The notes under the pieces were generated by a model. The model ran no database searches and was not told the origin of the DNA. It worked only from the letters and a program-made list of their open reading frames with translations. Shown here in pieces: positions 16,553 to 25,713 of a stretch of DNA of 64,000 nucleotides. Source of the stretch: a bacterium (lineage in GTDB: Bacteria; UBA8248); assembly GCA_965200245.1 (NCBI GenBank), contig CBDATS010000004.1, forward strand, positions 1,344,001 through 1,408,000, written 5' to 3'. The translations under genes were made by a program, and so were the position numbers. The first letter of the stretch is position 1. Each line of letters opens with the position of its first letter.

Positions 16553-18813
16553 ATGAGGGGGCCGGCCGGATGGCGGCACGGGACAAGCCGCCGGGTCTCC
16601 CCGCCTGAATCCTGTTCTTCCCCTCCCGCCGGTGGACGTTCCGCTTCCCGCAGTCGCGCGTCTTCCATCAGGGCTTTCGGTTCCTGTGTCCTGGCCGTTC
16701 TCCTGCTGACCTTCCTGCTCGCCGGCCCGGCCGCCGCAAACAACGAATGCGGCGACCCGCCCAACACTGGCGACCCCAGAGTCATCACCTGCGACGGAGA
16801 CGACCAGACCAACGCCGCTGGCGGCATCGAATGCCAGTTCGGCGACAACAACCAGGCCGACGCCAACGACTACACCATCATGGTCAAGGCAAAGTCAGGC
16901 GGCACCGGCCTCGACATCGACACGACGGCCGACGATACCAGCGGCGTTCTTGGAGAACACGGATCGACCGGCAACCTCACCATCGAGATGTCCGCGGCGA
17001 CATCGAGACTACAGGGAAGAACGCCCACGGCGTCCACGGGAGACACGACGGCACCGGTGAGCGCAAAATCTCCATCAGCATGTCCGGCGGGAACATCAAG
17101 ACCGGGACCGGGAGTGGCCAGGATACCGGGCGATTTGCTTTGGGTCTCTATGGAGAAACCGCAAGCAACAACTCCGGCAACCTGTCCATCACCATGTCCG
17201 GCGGCACTATCGAGACCGGGTTCGGGGACGGCACGGGAGCAGGCCATGGCGCCGCCGGCATCTATGCCAAGAAAATCGGCACGGGCATGTCCACCGTCAC
17301 CCTGTCGGGCGGCGACATCCATACCAAAAATAGCAAGGCCCACGGAATTTTTGGCACGGCCAATTACACAAAGCAGGGCCGTTTTACCGTCCACGTTCCC
17401 ACGGGCACCGTGGATATCGGTATGACCGGCGGCAGCATCACGACTTCCGGAAGCGGCGCCCGCGGCATCTACGCGCAGCACGAGGGTACCGGTGCTTTCG
17501 ACCCCGTCGTGGTCGAGGACAGCACGATCTCCGCAGCCCAGGCGGAAGCGATCTATCTCGAGGCCGACCCCGCCAAGACCCTGAGGCTCAGGAACAGTTC
17601 GATCTCAACTGGCGCCACCTCCGGCAACGCGATCGGGTTCAGCGGCAACACCGACGACACCCTGACGGTCCTGGGACATGAGGACGCTGGCATGACGGCC
17701 ACGACCACGATCCGGGGCGATGTGGCGTTCGGCGGCGGCAGCGACACGCTTGTCTTCAGTACCTGCCGGGAGGCCGATATCAGCGAGAACACTGCCTGCG
17801 AGGAGCAGACAGCCAGCGCGGGCGATCTCACCCTGAGCCATACCACCGGGATGTTTACCGGGCTGGAGAGCATCCGCAAGATCGGCTCGGGCACAGCTCG
17901 GCTGACCGATCTGGGCGCGGCGGGTGCGATGATGTCGCTGGAGGACGGCGACCTGCGCCTGACGGAGGCCGTCCTGGAGGGGTATCCGGTGCGCAGGGGA
18001 AGCGGTCCGGACGGGCGTTCGGTGAGGTTCGGGCTCCGCGGGGGTTCCGGAACCCGCGCCGTCTCCCTCGACATGGACCTGCGTCTCGGGGCGTCGGTGG
18101 CCCCCCTCGCCGAGGCGTTCTCGGATTCCCGGGACGAATCGGCCGAGGTCGAGCTCACGGGCGAGGTCTACGCGGCCGGTCTGGGCTGGCGGGGAGACGC
18201 GTTTTTCTCCGACGTGGCGCTCGCCCACGGCCGCTCGCGCGTATCATCACGGACGCTGGAGGCCACTGGCCTGTTCAGGGGCTCGTTCGACGTGAAGCAG
18301 ACCCATGCCGAAGCGAGGGCAGGTCGGCTGTTCCCCGCCGGAGGCATGCGCATCACCCCGTCGGTGTCGGTGTTCGCCGGTTCCCTGGACCACGGGGGCC
18401 ACACGGCGGAGGGCGCGGTGATGAGGGCCGAGATCCCGGGCTACTCGCAGGACTACCGGGGATGTCGGGCCGGGGTGGAGGTCGCGACGGCGGAGTGGCT
18501 GGAACTCTCCCCCGCGCTGCGCTGGCGGCCCGACCTGCAACTGGATCTGGCACACACCACGACGGACGGACCGGAGACGCTGACGGTGCGCAAGGCGGAC
18601 CATGCCGGGGTCATAAGCTTCCCCGAGAAAAAACGGGTGATCGGCGTGCCCCGGGAGGCGTTCCGCCTCGGTCTGGGCGTCACGCTGAAAGGCAGTTCGG
18701 ATGCCTGGAGCCTGCGCCTCGGTTACCGGGGAGAATGGACCGGCGGCGAGGACGAATGGGCCGGCCGTGAGGACGAACATTCCGTGCAGGCGGGCTTCTC
18801 GATACGGTTCTAG
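16553..18813 (+). pseudogene. Autotransporter/adhesin with Gly/Thr-rich passenger repeats, frameshifted near 16994
   Basis: Signal peptide (LLLTFLLAGPAAA) in ORF 16553 frame; SGGxIxT repeats and C-terminal GFSIRF beta-signal in ORF 16747 frame; one added G (TCC G[G]C GGC GAC) fuses them. Confidence 0.75.
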
Positions 18814-19261: not shown

Positions 19262-19864
19262 TTAGTCCGACTTCTCCCAATAAAGCCAGAGGCCGTGTTC
19301 GGACGCGATACGGAAAGAGCCGAGTGCCGTATTTTCAGCGATTTGGCGAACATCGGCGCGCGAGAGTCGCTTCTTGCCGGGGTGGTCGTTCAGCGCGCGC
19401 GCCTCGGGCAGGAGCGATTCGATGAGTGCATTCGACGCCCCTGCCCCGAACCCGCCACCATGCGCGCCCATCCCACCGGGCCTCAAGACGCGGTTCATTT
19501 CGGCGACGATTCTCTCCTGGTCGTCCCAGAAGAATAGTCCGCCCCGGAATATGACGAGATCGAAAGAGGCCGCATCGAACGGAAGGTTGTATTTGTCAAC
19601 AGGTTCCACGCGAAACCGCGCGGACATGTCTGCCTCTGCTATGGTCTCGGTGATATAGTCGCTCAGGGCCTGTGTGTCGTCTCCGCAGACGAAGAGCATC
19701 CCGGGGCAGCGCTCTGCCAAGGCAATCGCCACGCCCGGGCCGTAAGGGCCGATTTCCAGGACGTCGCCCGTGTCACGCCCGTATTCGGCGTGAATCTCCA
19801 TCGCCGCGTAGGGATAAAAAGGCTGAAAATGAGCGTTTACGGCGCGAATCAACTCGAAATCCAT
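19262..19864 (-). CDS. Class I SAM-dependent methyltransferase
   Basis: VLEIGPYGPG, LPFDAASFDLV, EMNRVLRPGG. Confidence 0.85.
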   Translation of the reverse strand: MDFELIRAVNAHFQPFYPYAAMEIHAEYGRDTGDVLEIGPYGPGVAIALAERCPGMLFVCGDDTQALSDYITETIAEADMSARFRVEPVDKYNLPFDAASFDLVIFRGGLFFWDDQERIVAEMNRVLRPGGMGAHGGGFGAGASNALIESLLPEARALNDHPGKKRLSRADVRQIAENTALGSFRIASEHGLWLYWEKSD

Positions 19865-20062
19865 GCGTGCTGTTCTCTCTTCGTTTGGATGCGCCGCTCC
19901 TGAAAGCAACGGCTGGATAAAAGTCTTCGCAGGGATGATATACCAATCGCGAAGCGTTTACGAAACCCGGTGCATCGGGCGCAAAACCTCATTTTCAAAA
20001 CGCCCCGTCTGCGATATTCTGCGGCCCAATCAGGGAAAAGCCCGACTGGTTCAGGAGACCCC

Positions 20063-21103
20063 ATGGAAGCGGCAAGCGAAGCAGCGGATGTCTATGAAGC
20101 AATAGAGACGTATCACGAAAAAGGCTGGACAGACGGTCTGCCCGTGATTCCCCCGACGCCCGAACTCGTAGAATGCTTTCTGGAGGCTTCGGGTCTGGAT
20201 GCCGATGACGTCGTTTTTCATCTGGCGGAGCGAAAAAGAACCGTCCGGAACGGGAAAGTAGTCTTGAACGCCATCATGGCGGGGTGTTTGCCCTCCTACA
20301 TGCCCGTCATTCTGGCTGCGCTCGAAGCTATGGCCGATCCGGCCTACAACCTTCACTCAAGTGCCACGAGCACGGGCGGGGCGGCCCCCTTCATGGTCGT
20401 AAACGGCCCGATTCGCCACGAGATAGGCCTCAACATGCATGGGAACATATACGGGCCGGGCAACCGCGCCGGTGCGACGATAGGACGCGTGCTCAGGCTC
20501 ATCATCATTAACTGCCTGGGATCGAAGCCGGGTCTTCTGGATCGCTCCACCCAGGGAAACCCGGGCAAGTACAGCTTCACATTTGCGGAATGGGAGGAAA
20601 CGAGTCCCTGGGAACCCTTGAACCTCGAACTCGGATATCCTGCCGAAACGAGCACGGTGACGCTTCTCGCGGCCGAAGGTCCGCACAACATACAGAACCA
20701 TTACGGCAAGGGGAGAGGAATCGCCGAAACCGCCGCCGCCACCATGGCGAGTCTGGGAAGTATGAGCGAGGGGCAATCCTTTTTTGTTTTCGCGCCCGAG
20801 CATGCGCATCTTCTGGGAGAGGAATTCCCCGTGAAAAGAGAATTGAAGGACTATTTGTTCGAGAACGCGATTCTCCCCCTGGATCAGCTCCTTCGCACGG
20901 GAAAGCTCGACAGGCCCATCGACGCCGATGAGAACGGTAACGTACGCCACGCGCTCAAGCCCGAAGACATATACATCGTTGTCGCAGGAGGCGAGGCTGG
21001 CGGACATTCCTCCTGGGTTCCCTCCTGGAGCAGGAGGCGGAACGGAGAAGCCGTCACCCGCCCGGTACTGAACGCGGTCGAGCGGCGCGAATCTCGCGGT
21101 TGA
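20063..21103 (+). CDS. Conserved uncharacterised protein typically paired with UGSC-family proteins
   Basis: GWTDGLPVIPPT, NAIMAGC, NGPIRHEIG, GPGNRAGATIGR, QGNPGKY; AGGAG SD before ATG 20063. Confidence 0.8.
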   Translation: MEAASEAADVYEAIETYHEKGWTDGLPVIPPTPELVECFLEASGLDADDVVFHLAERKRTVRNGKVVLNAIMAGCLPSYMPVILAALEAMADPAYNLHSSATSTGGAAPFMVVNGPIRHEIGLNMHGNIYGPGNRAGATIGRVLRLIIINCLGSKPGLLDRSTQGNPGKYSFTFAEWEETSPWEPLNLELGYPAETSTVTLLAAEGPHNIQNHYGKGRGIAETAAATMASLGSMSEGQSFFVFAPEHAHLLGEEFPVKRELKDYLFENAILPLDQLLRTGKLDRPIDADENGNVRHALKPEDIYIVVAGGEAGGHSSWVPSWSRRRNGEAVTRPVLNAVERRESRG

Positions 21104-21189
21104 AAAAAGTACAGGAGCGGGGATTGACCCATGGGAAACGAGACTGGAAATTGTCTGTGCACTGATTCATACCCGGAAGGAGGTTTTCG

Positions 21190-21735
21190 ATGAACCCCGT
21201 AGTGGAGACGGCGATACCGATTTACGATCCGACAGTGGAACCAGTGATCGAAACCGAAGAACGCACAAATCGCGACGGCGCGCTCGCGGGAAAACGCATC
21301 GGCCTGCTCTGGAACTCTAAGGTGGGTGCGGACAAACTCATGCGTTACATTCTGGATGAGTTGCGGACGGACGGCGCGGATCCCGACCTCGCCGTAGAAC
21401 TGTCGAAAGAATACGACACCCGTCCGGCGAAGCCCGAGGTGTATGCGGAAATGGCCGAGAAATGCGACCTTGCCATCACCGCGGTGGGTGACTGAGGGTC
21501 CTGTTCTTCGTGCAGTGTGCACGATGGAATCGAGCTTGAAAAAAAAGGCGTTCCCACGGCCGTCATCTGTACCGAGCCCTTCCGCCCCACGGTCGAAATG
21601 GTCTCCAGGGTGCGCGGTATGCCGGATTATCCTGTGGCTTATATCCCCCATCCGGTTGGCAGTCTCACGGACGAGCAACTCCGGGGCCGCGCGAGAGACA
21701 TCGCTCCCACGATCAGGACGCTTCTTACGGGCTGA
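21190..21735 (+). CDS. UGSC-family selenoprotein (Sec at TGA 21493-21495), 181 aa
   Basis: ORFs 21190-21495 and 21517-21735 are one frame: AITAVGD-U-GSCSSCSVHDGIELEKKGVPT; hairpin follows the UGA; GGAGG SD. Confidence 0.88.
21503..21530 (+). promoter_or_regulatory. Putative bacterial SECIS element
   Basis: GTTCT-TCGTGCA-GTG-TGCACGA-T-GGAAT stem-loop with G-containing apex about 20 nt 3' of the UGA. Confidence 0.7.
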
Positions 21736-21756
21736 GCCACGCCTGAAACCGGCTCG

Positions 21757-22638
21757 CTACATCGCTTTCAGGGCAATTATCGCTCCTCCAGCGACCACAC
21801 AGACTGTACCAAACAGGATGGGGAGCGTGATTCGTTCCATATCGCGCAAGAATATCCAGGTGTACAAAAGAGCGAAAAGCGGCGCGGTGGATGAAAGCGG
21901 CGATACAACCGAAATGTCGCCATACTTCAAAGCGGCGAAATGACTCAAGAACGCCAGCGTGTTAATGAGTCCGCAGGGGCCATAGAAGTGCCAGGCCTTT
22001 CCCCATTTGAGTGAGGGACGCAGGGGTTTTGGCAGGAACCATAATACCGCGAACAGCGCGACGAACCCGAAAACACTGGTGAGCGTGATGCCGAGCAGTG
22101 CAGATGGAACGATCTCGATGCCGATTTTTCTGAAAATGTTCGACGTGGAAAATCCCAAAACAGACAGTAACGGCAACCAGATGGCGCGCCTGTCCCAGCG
22201 AACGTCGCTCTTGCGCTGATAGGTAATCCCCCCACACCCCAGCACGACAAGGAAAATCCCGGCCCAGACGTATGTCCCCGGCCGTTCACCAAGGAAAATA
22301 TAGGCGAAACAGGCTGAAAAAAGCGGATTGGCGGCCAGGAGGGGAACTGCACGCGATACGCCCAGGCGATGTATGGCCTGGAACATGAATACGCGGCCGA
22401 GCGAAGGCCCCGTGATGCCTGACAGGAAAAACCAGAACCAGGCTTCCGAACTCCAGTAGGAAGGCTCCCAGGTGAGGATCGTGAGCGCTATCAGCCATGG
22501 GATGTTTACTATCAAGCCAATGACGACGCCTGTCATGGCCGTACCGTGTTGCTGCCCCCGTCTGGCAATGAGGCTGAAGGCTGAGGACATGGACGCGGTG
22601 CCCAGGGCGAACCCCGCCGCCAGCAACGTATCGTTCAT
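21757..22638 (-). CDS. DMT/EamA family transporter
   Basis: About 10 TM helices; GVSRAVP and GDISVVSPL repeat halves. Confidence 0.88.
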   Translation of the reverse strand: MNDTLLAAGFALGTASMSSAFSLIARRGQQHGTAMTGVVIGLIVNIPWLIALTILTWEPSYWSSEAWFWFFLSGITGPSLGRVFMFQAIHRLGVSRAVPLLAANPLFSACFAYIFLGERPGTYVWAGIFLVVLGCGGITYQRKSDVRWDRRAIWLPLLSVLGFSTSNIFRKIGIEIVPSALLGITLTSVFGFVALFAVLWFLPKPLRPSLKWGKAWHFYGPCGLINTLAFLSHFAALKYGDISVVSPLSSTAPLFALLYTWIFLRDMERITLPILFGTVCVVAGGAIIALKAM

Positions 22639-22793: not shown

Positions 22794-24244
22794 TCAACCA
22801 TCGGTAATCGGCTGGGCGATGATCCGCAGGCTCACCATGGTGTAGCCCACCATGAGAAGGAGCATCGGGTATTGGCTGCGCACGGCGGCGAAACGGTTCT
22901 CCAGCGCACGCAGTGCCGTCACGTGCGCCAGGTAGACTGCGCTGATATGACCGATAACGATCGCCGCGATCGAAGCGTACCAGGTCGTCTTGGCGCCGAT
23001 GATTCCGATGTCGACTTTATAGGCGGCGGTTCCCCACAGGTTCCACCCTGTCCCGAAGGGATCCGAAAGCAGCGGGATGATACGTTGCCCCTGGATGAAG
23101 AGAAAGGAAAAATAATGCGCCACGTGGTACCCAATCGCGATGGGGACCAGCGAAAAAACGAACAGGCGCGCGAATTCCCCTGTTGTGAGTACGTTTCCGC
23201 TCATGGTGCGCATCAGCATGCAGAATACGTAATAGACGCCCAGAAACAGGGCTGGAGCCGCGATAAGCGCGATCGTATCTGCCACGAGCAAGGCATCGCG
23301 CCCTGCCCAGGTGACCGCTTCGTATGTCCCTGCGCGCAGCAAGTGCCATAGTGGTGTTTCGGTAAAACCGTCGAAACTCACCGTCGCCAACATCAGGATC
23401 ACTAACACCACCATGGAGTTGCTCATGCCTTTCGTGTCCAGAAGACCCACAGCCGGCGGTCTTATGTGCCACTCTCTTCTCCCTTCCCCGTTCAGGCGCG
23501 CCTCTGTGATCGAGAACCGTCCCATTACGCCGAATATGATGGAAAATGCCTCTCCGCGCTCAAGCCACGCATCCTTGCCGCAGAGGAACATGCCCGTCCA
23601 GGTGATGATGGAATACCCGATTGCGGCGAGCGCGAGGTTGTGGGGCAGGTCGTTGTGCGGCCAGACGATCTCGGCCCACGCGAACCACAGGAACAGGCCC
23701 ACGGCCGGCCACACGCCCGGGTTTCCCGAAAACGGCTGCCTGGGTGACAGGGAACCGCCGGGCCTGATTTTTCGGTACAGCGTCTCCGCCCAGGAAAAGA
23801 TGATGCTCCACGGATTCACCAGCGACCAGAGGTTGCCTGCCAGCGCGCAGACATAGGCCAGCCCCACCCACCAGACAATCCAGACCATGGTGGGCGCGAA
23901 GTTCTTGTCCGGGTTTTCCGTTCCACAGAGACCCGCCACAAGCGTCACAAAAAACAAGGTGACCGAAATCGCCCTGATGAACGAGAGGAAAACCGCCCCG
24001 CCCATCCACGCGAAAACGGGAGATGCGAGAAGGTCATGGCTCGGATAATCCATGTGCTCTGGTTTTTTCGCACGAAAAGTCCCATGCACAGGAAAGAAAA
24101 CACCACGGATGCGCCCGCACCCAGCATGAACAAACCCAGTGGCACCGGCAGATCGTACCTCTGACCGAACCCGTGTGCCGATGCGACGGATGGAAGCAGG
24201 CAGACGGTGGCAGCGAGGAAAAACCCTTGGGCGTTGAGGCTCAT
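22794..24244 (-). pseudogene. Multi-pass membrane protein ('fenitrothion hydrolase FedB'-like), frameshifted at A6 tract 24063-24068
   Basis: Signal peptide + HGFGQRYDLPVP in ORF 23945-24244 joins ORF 22794-24089 (SLVPIAIGYHVAHY, SDPFGTGWNLWGT, RSQYP) if one A is added. Confidence 0.75.
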
Positions 24245-24257
24245 AAAGTTGTCCTCT

Positions 24258-24698
24258 TCACGGATGCACCTCGAGGTAGAACAATACTTTCTCGCTGTGG
24301 CCGCCGCTTTTTTTCTTCCCGTGAGAGTGAGAGCCGTGTTCCGTTACGGGGAATCGGCCCGCAACTTTGGCGCGAAACGCCATCACGGCTGTTTTGCCCG
24401 GCGAAACAGTTTTTTCGATGTCATAACCATGGAGGTGGACTTCGGTTTTCCGATCGGCCATGAGGTTGAGTCTGACCTTGTCTCCCTGCTTCACGCGAAC
24501 CACTTTCTTGCTGCCCTGGATTTTCCCGCCAGCGATTTTGAGCGTAATGCCTCCGAGTGCCTCGCCTTTCACGGGAGTTTCCTTCATTGCCGGTTTCTTC
24601 CCCTGGTGGCCATGCCCCCTGTCTGCGCTTTGGGCGGGGATTGTCTGAAAAAGTGCGACCAGCACAAGAATAGAAAAAACCCTGCAAATGAATTTCAT
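24258..24698 (-). CDS. Secreted His-rich cupredoxin-like protein
   Basis: Signal peptide, VRVKQGDKVRL, EVHLHGYD, AGRFPVTEHGSHSH; GGAGGAG SD. Confidence 0.75.
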   Translation of the reverse strand: MKFICRVFSILVLVALFQTIPAQSADRGHGHQGKKPAMKETPVKGEALGGITLKIAGGKIQGSKKVVRVKQGDKVRLNLMADRKTEVHLHGYDIEKTVSPGKTAVMAFRAKVAGRFPVTEHGSHSHGKKKSGGHSEKVLFYLEVHP

Positions 24699-24831
24699 GT
24701 CCACTCCTCCCCGAAGCAGTCTTGGCAAGGACGAATCCTCTTCGCTTGCCATGGGAAACAATTGATTGGCGGCGTATCAGGAAACCCTGCAAGCGGGGTC
24801 ACTATATCAGAACAGATAAAAGCACGCTTCG

Positions 24832-25713
24832 TCAGAGGGCACGGCCGGCCACCAGCGCGCCGCCCACGACGACTGCCACCGTTCCCAGGAGAATCGGCCA
24901 GGTAATGCGCTCGACCTGACGCAGGAATATGGCCGTGAGCAGCAGTGCCCACAAGGGCGCGGTGGCGGCGAGCGGAATCACGATGGTCAGATCGCCGTAC
25001 CGGAGACCGTATAGATGCAGGAGAACCGACAGGGCGTTCAGGGAACCTCCTATGCTGTAGGCCACCCACGCTTTCTTCCCTGTCAGTGAAGGCCTCAGGT
25101 CTGGCGGCAGATACTGTCCGAAAACATAGAGAAACGTCCCGCCTGCGACGCTCATGATCGATATTCCCAAAAACGGGTTGGGCGATGTGCCAACGCCGAG
25201 TTTTCGCAGCATGTGTGAGATCGAGAAAAAGACCACACTGCCGAGCGCTACGAGCAAATCGCTGCTCCGGATAGGCTGGGCCTCCCCTCTTCTCGAGGTA
25301 ATTCCCATACACCCAAGGACGATTAGCACCGTGCCCGCCAGAATGTACGGCCCTGGTCTTTCGCTCAGGATGAAGATACCGATTATCGCCGAGAAAAGCG
25401 GCATGGTGGAATTGAGTGGCACGGCGCGCGCCACACCCATCAAGTGAATCGAATGGAAAAAACATACCCTCCCCACGGCGGGACCCATGATTCCCGCCAG
25501 CGCGAAAAACAGCCAACCCAGAGGCTGGTAGTGAGCGGGTTCCCATGTCCAAATCGCCCCGAGGAACAACGGCGGCAGAGAGGCGATGATCCCGATAAGA
25601 ACGCCTGATACCGCGTTCGCGTGCTGCTGCCCGCTTCTCACAAACAGTGTGAAGGAGCCGACCACGAGCGCCGTGGAGAGCGAGAAGAGAACCGAGAGGG
25701 AAGTTGTGGTCAT
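24832..25713 (-). CDS. DMT/EamA family transporter
   Basis: About 10 TM helices; clear paralogue of 21757-22638. Confidence 0.88.
   Translation of the reverse strand: MTTTSLSVLFSLSTALVVGSFTLFVRSGQQHANAVSGVLIGIIASLPPLFLGAIWTWEPAHYQPLGWLFFALAGIMGPAVGRVCFFHSIHLMGVARAVPLNSTMPLFSAIIGIFILSERPGPYILAGTVLIVLGCMGITSRRGEAQPIRSSDLLVALGSVVFFSISHMLRKLGVGTSPNPFLGISIMSVAGGTFLYVFGQYLPPDLRPSLTGKKAWVAYSIGGSLNALSVLLHLYGLRYGDLTIVIPLAATAPLWALLLTAIFLRQVERITWPILLGTVAVVVGGALVAGRAL

Follow-up and report, generated by a model that had tools for sequence, protein, structure and literature searches.

Introduction

UGSC proteins have been catalogued as selenoproteins since the 2000s and have curated models in Pfam (PF24696) and NCBIfam (NF041046). 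In passages of the paper by Zhang and Gladyshev (2008, PMC2398784), which speaks of the 'UGSC-containing protein', the UGSC sequences from GOS number 255 with selenocysteine (Sec, U) and 21 with cysteine, a thioredoxin-like fold is conjectured, and Figure S1A presents UGSC joined to 'Unknown_1', a conserved domain from aquatic organisms to which no function is assigned. Passages of a 2026 review (PMC13188914) count UGSC among the selenoproteins whose functions 'remain largely uncharacterized'. Our search of the literature on UGSC selenoproteins found no functional study, and the passages of these two papers and of PMC9312934 give no biochemistry for the family, in agreement with an earlier model-generated annotation of the DNA studied here (the initial annotation). 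This DNA is a 64,000-nucleotide stretch of a bacterial genome (contig CBDATS010000004.1, positions 1,344,001 to 1,408,000), which we call the window. It contains a UGSC gene with an in-frame UGA codon and, upstream of it, the gene for a 346-residue protein of an unnamed family, which we call the partner.

The UGSC protein of the window resembles the family of PMC2398784 in its full-length profile match, in its U-G-S-C motif and in that Sec is far commoner than Cys at the motif's first position. No feature sets it apart, and it is an ordinary member of a known selenoprotein family with its usual partner. The initial annotation had proposed a two-subunit selenium-dependent oxidoreductase and a candidate for an undescribed system. 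The two genes do behave as one unit with a Sec codon, but 'undescribed' is too strong for a family with this record of cataloguing, with models in two databases and with a fusion printed in 2008.

Two other kinds of described system are close. In GrdB and PrdB (PF07355, TIGR01917), Sec is located at the end of a β-strand and is followed by x-x-C and a helix, and then by a conserved H-P-x-G. The UGSC protein shares this layout and a weak, Sec-registered similarity over its C-terminal half, and its gene likewise adjoins the gene of a second subunit. It differs in falling below the GrdB/PrdB family thresholds and in its unrelated N-terminal half; the partner is unrelated to GrdE and PrdA, and no GrdA-like protein is involved. 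PrdA and GrdE bind and activate the substrate. Thioredoxin systems, among which AhpF/AhpC and NTRC have fused or dedicated reductases, follow the same logic as the one we propose for the pair: a pyridine-nucleotide disulphide reductase with C-x-x-C, a small shuttle with U/C-x-x-C at the N-terminus of a helix, and a target with a conserved cysteine. Fusions between neighbouring members of the chain occur in both. The difference is that the shuttle here is predicted to be flavodoxin-like and nearly always contains selenium, and that the putative terminal enzyme lies outside the described families.

From the genes alone, we think it rather likely that the UGSC protein and its partner constitute a two-component selenium-dependent reductase working by a thiol/selenol relay.

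Results and discussion

An in-frame UGA codon for selenocysteine

The features on which the argument depends are the following.

20063..21103, + strand: partner gene, 346 aa, unnamed family (translation); presumed catalytic subunit with invariant Asp24 and Cys75
21190..21735, + strand: UGSC-family selenoprotein gene, 181 aa, with Sec102, Cys105 and Cys108 (Pfam/NCBIfam match, AlphaFold2 model)
21493..21495, + strand: UGA read as selenocysteine (TGA or Cys in the homologue column; Sec machinery in the genome)
21503..21530, + strand: hairpin resembling a selenocysteine insertion sequence (SECIS) (minimum-free-energy fold; covariation in 69 sequences)

The TGA at 21493-21495 separates two open reading frames (ORFs) called with translation table 11 in the same frame, 21190..21495 (101 aa, ending in AVGD) and 21517..21735 (72 aa). 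Read as U, it yields a single product of 181 residues containing D-U-G-S-C-S-S-C-S-V-H-D, in which U is residue 102. The terminal stop of the gene, at 21733-21735, is TGA too. The partner gene ends at 21103, on the same strand and 86 bp before the UGSC ATG at 21190, and its translation contains the motifs GWTDGLP, NAIMAGC and GNRAGATIGR. The split gene, its read-through, the gap and the motif-bearing upstream protein had all been described in the initial annotation and are borne out by the ORF list and the DNA.

The read-through product matches PF24696 almost from end to end (profile positions 2-171 of 172), with 182.4 bits against a cut-off of 25, and NF041046 with 144.6 bits (cut-off, 125). 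Homologues were collected from 80 loci, reached via the partner protein in contigs of one genome per species; 76 UGSC genes from these loci cover the Sec column, which is TGA in 73 and Cys in three. A single in-frame TGA is found in all 94 UGSC matches from 14 related genomes, and the conserved sequence continues intact beyond the TGA in the homologues. D-U-G-S-C corresponds to residues 101-105, of which D101, U102, G103 and C105 are invariant across 30 sequences. The genome encodes the machinery for Sec, with all four components scoring above their cut-offs: selA (572.7 bits), selB (391.9), selD (338.6) and tRNA-Sec (75.9). The selA and selB genes are on the same contig, 11-16 kb past the end of the window. 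The selD gene (G000:C8:72779-73741, locus L010) has one in-frame TGA of its own, and the selenophosphate synthetase of this genome is, judging by its gene, probably a selenoprotein. The initial annotation had thus named the family correctly, by both curated cut-offs, and had rightly anticipated Cys or UGA at the homologous position; selA, selB, selD and tRNA-Sec, which it had suggested looking for, are all present. Its motif UxxCxxC is true of the window copy, but only U-x-x-C is general, the third Cys being Gly, Ser or Trp in other subfamilies.

A hairpin just 3' of the UGA at 21493 would aid decoding as Sec. In the minimum-free-energy fold, a core stem pairs 21508-21514 with 21518-21524 around an apical GUG loop (21515-21517), and a lower stem pairs 21503-21507 with 21526-21530. 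To examine the hairpin, we aligned the 63-nt stretches of 69 homologues without gaps. The seven-pair core stem is paired in 91.7% of cells, and pairing is at most 61% once the partner strand is slid. Alignment pair 24-30 occurs as C-G 59 times and as G-C 10 times, and pair 22-32 as U-A 58 times, G-U 10 times and A-U once; loop positions G26 and U27 never vary. Position 30, the third base of a codon, tracks position 24 across subfamilies, which argues for a constraint on the RNA. The covariation score is 0.226, compared with 0.079 in shuffles, and was reached by none of 500; kinship among the sequences and the strong conservation of the coding motif that contains the hairpin inflate this test. 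Taken as a whole, the 71-nt stretch is only marginally more stable than its shuffled versions (z, -1.14). No Rfam family matched 19800-22000 at E ≤ 1, and Rfam is not known to contain a general bacterial SECIS model.

Two RNA-library runs (X6 and X7, available as contigs only) contain short contigs that are identical to parts of both genes, one of them spanning the TGA. No contig in these runs bridges the UGSC and partner genes, and the libraries may contain DNA. The contigs are weak evidence and inform on neither expression level nor co-transcription. Each run also contains a contig of about 2.1 kb, at the much higher depths of 84 and 68, whose match to the window is confined to the 45 bases at 21486-21530 (the Sec codon and hairpin) and shows one difference; presumably it comes from another UGSC gene that has the conserved SECIS region in common.

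As far as sequence analysis allows, then, the in-frame UGA at 21493-21495 is a genuine Sec codon of a UGSC-family selenoprotein. With a true stop at this position no selenoprotein would be made, and the locus would be either a broken gene or a pair of small ORFs. We regard this as extremely improbable given a TGA that 73 of 76 distant homologues and all 94 related copies have at the exact column, each time with conserved sequence after it, the compensatory changes in the hairpin, the complete Sec machinery and RNA-library contigs that are identical to the DNA and span the codon, even if table 11 calling splits the gene and both the modest fold of the 71-nt stretch and the lack of an Rfam match would suit a stop.

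The UGSC gene and the partner gene as one unit

The 80 loci span Methylomirabilota, Gamma- and Alphaproteobacteria, Chloroflexota, Binatia, Acidobacteriota, Tectimicrobiota and others. UGSC adjoins the partner in 75 of them: in 62 it follows the partner on the same strand, in 11 it precedes the partner on that strand, and in two it is encoded on the opposite strand. The five loci without UGSC (L030, L063, L074, L082 and L097) have less than 600 nt of flanking sequence on at least one side. In L091 the two proteins are fused in a single frame of 542 residues, UGSC first and then the partner, with one TGA. The window genome contains such a fusion as well (G000:C4:1246527-1248248; L220 5527-7248, minus strand), in which a UGSC domain with U-G-G-C and a partner domain are joined in a gene with one in-frame TGA; a partner paralogue lies directly downstream. 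Among 38 partner representatives of odd length, 24 contain UGSC, either as a domain or as a fragment bounded on one side by the Sec position, with UGSC before the partner in some and after it in others. The fragments arise because gene calls are cut at the UGA.

All seven UGSC genes of the window genome have a partner gene within 3 kb. Across 21 related genomes, both families are present in the same 14 and absent from the same seven; these genomes are kin, so that shared presence and absence are not independent evidence. Clustering of 738 ORFs from the 80 loci revealed no third conserved gene family, the next cluster spanning seven loci. Apart from the partner, the only large cluster (41 loci) was discarded as an artefact, its ORFs being antisense to the split UGSC gene. 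The adjacency in 75 of 80 loci, the fusions in L091 and L220 and the joint presence or absence in the related genomes indicate that the two genes behave as one unit, as the initial annotation had supposed.

Conservation and predicted folds of the two proteins

The partner (P0002) has no match in Pfam or NCBIfam at E ≤ 0.01. The 27 members of its alignment (A1) have no weak Pfam match in common at E ≤ 5; their matches are scattered and due to chance, the commonest occurring in five of 27 at E 0.14. The family is large, with more than 5015 clusters of relatives at 90% identity and 6633 representatives at 50% identity (E ≤ 1e-3), 1915 of which have E ≤ 1e-30. Our closer look at the representatives covered the best 150 of the 6633, with the most distant relatives lying outside. 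All names listed for relatives in these clusters by their sources are 'hypothetical protein' or bare gene-call records. A search of the Atlas returned only the partner's own unnamed clusters; two have automatic names ('Thioredoxin family protein' and 'Thiol-disulfide oxidoreductase family protein'), which we set aside as a lead only, since the clusters have no Pfam family. The 'Unknown_1' domain of Zhang and Gladyshev (2008, PMC2398784) is fused to UGSC in the part of that work cited above, as the partner family is here, and the two may be the same.

Alignment A1 features dozens of invariant polar residues. Among 130 high-scoring segment pairs (HSPs), distant paralogues included, Asp24 is kept in 126 of 126 aligned HSPs and Cys75 in 125 of 126; the next most conserved residues are Trp22, His247, Thr104, Asp160 and Lys169. 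None of the 130 HSPs has Sec in place of Cys75. The AlphaFold2 model of the partner (pLDDT 84.4, pTM 0.88) places Cys75 between helices 63-72 and 77-91, which would be a usual position for a reactive cysteine. Foldseek found no match to this model in the PDB at E ≤ 1e-3, the best being class I fumarate hydratase (E 1.6e-2, TM score 0.2-0.3). With VIA-align the highest Z among 48161 chains was 4.3, no chain reaching 5, and the sequences of solved structures gave no match at E ≤ 10. The weak structural matches (class I fumarate hydratase, chorismate-mutase/YjgF-like proteins, 'Toblerone' cyclic amide hydrolases and MmgE/PrpD; Z ≤ 4.3) were not used.

The UGSC protein is modelled with higher confidence (pLDDT 93.8). 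It consists of five β-α units; helix 103-118 has Sec at its N-terminus. Foldseek gave 38 matches at E ≤ 1e-3, and the best 50 rows comprise flavodoxin-like, Rossmann-like and GTPase-like folds but none of the thioredoxin type. These listed matches, being flavodoxin-like and Rossmann-like, do not support the thioredoxin-like fold conjectured in the 2008 paper. A sequence search of the PDB returned only 1o1y, at E 0.19. Residues 1-34 have no secondary structure in the monomer model and contain an invariant Pro within a D-P-T motif; this N-terminal stretch may be a docking tail.

Domain fusions and the proposed relay

Sixteen partner fusions have lengths of 499-563 residues, and in five of them an AhpC-TSA/Redoxin domain takes the place of UGSC. 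Three redoxin fusions were read; two have C-x-x-C and one has C-x-x-S. A redoxin domain in this place implies that a dithiol module of thioredoxin fold can substitute for UGSC. Among 28 relatives longer than 606 residues, 22 combine the partner with a Pyr_redox_2 domain, two contain UGSC and four have no Pfam domain. One source labels five of the 22 partner-Pyr_redox_2 proteins as thioredoxin reductase. The Pyr_redox_2 domain of P0212 contains C-A-V-C where low-molecular-weight thioredoxin reductases have their redox-active pair. Another representative consists of a UGSC fragment, the partner and FeThRed_B, a domain like the β subunit of ferredoxin:thioredoxin reductase. Eight metagenome loci include DNA upstream of the partner-reductase fusion, and in all eight a UGSC gene with its TGA directly precedes the fusion; with 68-91% identity to the query, the loci are closely related to each other and do not count as eight independent cases.

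The redoxin-partner fusions P0185, P0215 and P0244 have an interdomain linker with a short conserved stretch around a cysteine (P-G-C-G-S/A or F-G-C-A-S). The same three proteins depart from the subfamily of the window at several residues that do not vary there (S-T-G-G, G-G-H-S).

The relay that we favour would operate as follows. The UGSC protein would be a flavodoxin-like α/β domain in which, according to the model, Sec102 is at the N-terminus of a helix and Cys105 is one turn on. Going by the model and the motif, these two residues would cycle between selenol/thiol and a selenenylsulphide. The 346-residue partner would be the substrate-specific catalytic subunit, with Cys75, Asp24, Lys169 and His247 as likely active-site residues. 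The fused domains suggest that electrons would pass from a pyridine-nucleotide-dependent or ferredoxin-dependent disulphide reductase to Sec/Cys of UGSC, from there to Cys75 of the partner, and finally to a small-molecule substrate. In this organism the donor reductase would be encoded away from the pair.

Several points weigh against the relay, in addition to the kinship of the eight metagenome loci and the inflated shuffle test of the hairpin. The proposed direction of electron flow is drawn solely from the kinds of domain that are fused. A Pyr_redox_2 neighbour occurs in only one of the 80 distant loci, as does a DSBA neighbour, and no reductase gene was found beside the window copy or the other copies of this genome. 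Two partner paralogues (L224 and L225) have no UGSC gene within 5 kb, and the pairing is thus not strictly one to one. Finally, the nearest neighbours vary between lineages and point to no substrate.

The analysis ties UGSC to one large unnamed family with an invariant cysteine, and natural fusions name the likely electron donors, which opens a concrete experimental route to function. The chemistry of the system can be tested, and it bears on the open question over an abundant environmental selenoprotein.

Relation to GrdB and PrdB

UGSC residues 88-158 match positions 333-397 of the NCBIfam model for glycine reductase selenoprotein B, around its Sec, with E 2.6e-4. The family cut-offs are far off, with 20 bits against 602.2 for TIGR01917 and 15.3 against 65.45 for TIGR01918, and PF07355 gives no match at E ≤ 0.01. 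A profile comparison using hhalign superimposes Sec on Sec with the genome's own GrdB-like selenoprotein over 79 columns, including H-P-x-G (probability 47%, E 1.9e-4); with a short PrdB-like gene of the genome the probability is 6%. The partner profile (A1) shows no similarity to the genome's GrdB-like and PF09338 (GrdE-like) proteins, at a probability of 0.1% each. UGSC and the GrdB/PrdB proteins probably inherited a Sec-bearing half-domain from a common ancestor, yet UGSC stands outside that family.

The genome, which is rich in selenoproteins, has four genes of the GRDB family (PF07355), each read through an in-frame TGA (L104-L107: G000:C5:577348, C8:244993, C4:784599 and C4:1532214). One encodes a GrdB-like protein of 438 residues and adjoins a PF09338 (GrdE/PrdA-type) gene; three are PrdB-like, with 266-306 residues and U-x-L-C. 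All four have the strand-U-x-x-C-helix layout of UGSC.

This similarity raises the alternative that the system is akin to glycine or proline reductase. UGSC would then be the catalytic selenosubunit, like GrdB or PrdB, and its selenol would attack the substrate directly for reductive C-N, C-S or C-O cleavage; the partner would only bind and activate the substrate, Cys105 would resolve the selenoether or selenenylsulphide, and an external reductase would recycle the protein. The selenoprotein B match, the Sec-on-Sec alignment and the layout common to the four GRDB-family genes are what one would expect from such an enzyme, and the acyl-CoA genes beside three of seven UGSC loci in the genome and 10 of 80 distant loci (see below) would fit small carboxylates or CoA esters as substrates. 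We nevertheless consider it rather unlikely. The same similarity misses the GrdB threshold by a wide margin (20 bits against 602, and nothing with PF07355) and all but vanishes with the PrdB-like gene; the partner resembles neither GrdB-like nor GrdE-like proteins in profile; a redoxin C-x-x-C in UGSC's place, in five fusions, better fits a generic electron shuttle; and direct attack by Sec leaves the partner's invariant Cys75 unexplained.

Paralogues and neighbouring genes

The window genome (3.7 Mb) contains seven UGSC genes, with one TGA each, and 13 partner paralogues, four of them in tandem. In its congeners, UGSC genes number 3-9 and partner genes 4-10. For the relay, the many paralogues suggest a set of reductases with differing substrates that share one kind of selenium shuttle. 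The set is unusually large for one genome and provides local material for comparison.

The tandem of four partner paralogues is located at G000:C4:1230217-1234648 (minus strand; L219 8239-12649). A UGSC gene (C4:1226993-1227496) lies about 2.7 kb from it; the interval contains a molybdopterin oxidoreductase gene, and an acyl-CoA dehydrogenase is encoded nearby. In L223 5134-6890 (G000:C4:1133750-1135344), a UGSC variant with H-U-G-S-S, in which position +3 is not Cys, precedes a partner gene with a frameshift in the assembly; CoA-transferase III and enoyl-CoA hydratase genes are directly upstream of this pair. In a divergent partner paralogue, L122 1510-2535 (G000:C2:258801-259793), the family-like frame runs on past a TGA at the place of the conserved Trp322. 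This TGA may be a stop, a Sec codon or a sign of decay; no UGSC gene was found within 5 kb of the paralogue.

The pair in the window is flanked by the following genes.

19262..19909, - strand: class-I methyltransferase, divergent (Pfam Methyltransf_11); neighbour
21757..22638, - strand: EamA-family transporter, convergent (Pfam EamA); neighbour

The initial annotation had suggested that these two might handle the same substrate as the pair. Both flank it in all 11 congeneric orthologous loci, which are kin, and a tblastn search with the methyltransferase and EamA proteins found no match in any of the 80 distant loci. The suggestion that they belong to the system is not supported, and the association may be specific to the genus.

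The nearest neighbours in the distant loci were 119 ORFs from a crude caller, of which 52 had no Pfam match. The others include five MFS transporters, three CoA-transferases III, two enoyl-CoA hydratases and a single acyl-CoA dehydrogenase, thioesterase, MaoC, ChsH2 and MeaB; genes related to acyl-CoA are next to the pair in 10 of the 80 loci. In the window genome, three of the seven UGSC loci are directly flanked by such genes: one by a CoA-transferase III, one by two acyl-CoA dehydrogenases, and one by a CoA-transferase III and an enoyl-CoA hydratase. The window copy itself has none; its surroundings contain an ABC transporter, a flavoprotein similar to flavin-containing monooxygenases, two EamA genes, unassigned membrane proteins and a paralogue of elongation factor G. 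The clues to the substrate from neighbouring genes are weak.

Heterogeneous neighbourhoods of this kind, and a partner without a known catalytic fold or family, would also suit a partner that is not an enzyme acting on a metabolite. It could be a redox target of UGSC, a scaffold, a sensor or a factor for UGSC maturation, regulated for instance through reduction of Cys75, and the pair would then lack reductase activity on small molecules. This is improbable, in our judgement, for a protein with dozens of invariant polar residues, as is typical of an active site, with 13 paralogues in one 3.7-Mb genome, four of them in tandem, with catabolic genes often in the same operon-like runs, and with several kinds of electron-donor domain fused to it. 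Paralogue number, catabolic neighbours and donor-domain fusions are patterns of metabolic enzymes, not of regulators.

A wider version of the relay can be put forward tentatively. The pair may be the core of an undescribed and very widespread class of selenium-dependent reductases, in which a catalytic fold unmatched in the PDB, with a universal Asp/Cys site, is served by a flavodoxin-fold Sec/Cys shuttle in the place of thioredoxin. The shuttle would be recharged by proteins like thioredoxin reductase or ferredoxin:thioredoxin reductase, and the substrates would be CoA-activated organic acids or similar small molecules. If this were true, the 13 catalytic paralogues, the seven shuttles and the neighbouring CoA genes would together represent a set of reductions of such compounds.

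Gene starts and other observations in the window

Both genes of the pair are preceded by a putative ribosome-binding site.

20053..20058, + strand: Shine-Dalgarno-like AGGAGA, 4 nt 5' of the partner ATG (read from the DNA)
21175..21183, + strand: Shine-Dalgarno-like GGAAGGAGG, 6 nt 5' of the UGSC ATG (read from the DNA)

For the partner we prefer the ATG at 20063 over an upstream GTG at 19970, because the homologues in alignment A1 begin at the equivalent Met. A scan for promoters and terminators revealed nothing above the shuffled expectation.

Upstream of the methyltransferase gene, an ORF of 688 residues (16747-18813, + strand) is rich in Gly, Thr and Ser and has no Pfam match. On the other side of the pair, two EamA genes (21757-22638 and 24832-25713) bracket genes for proteins of 431 and 167 residues, both without a Pfam match (22794-25713, - strand). 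DNA of the window is contained in sequencing runs labelled sponge metagenome, and the family occurs in many marine and soil lineages.

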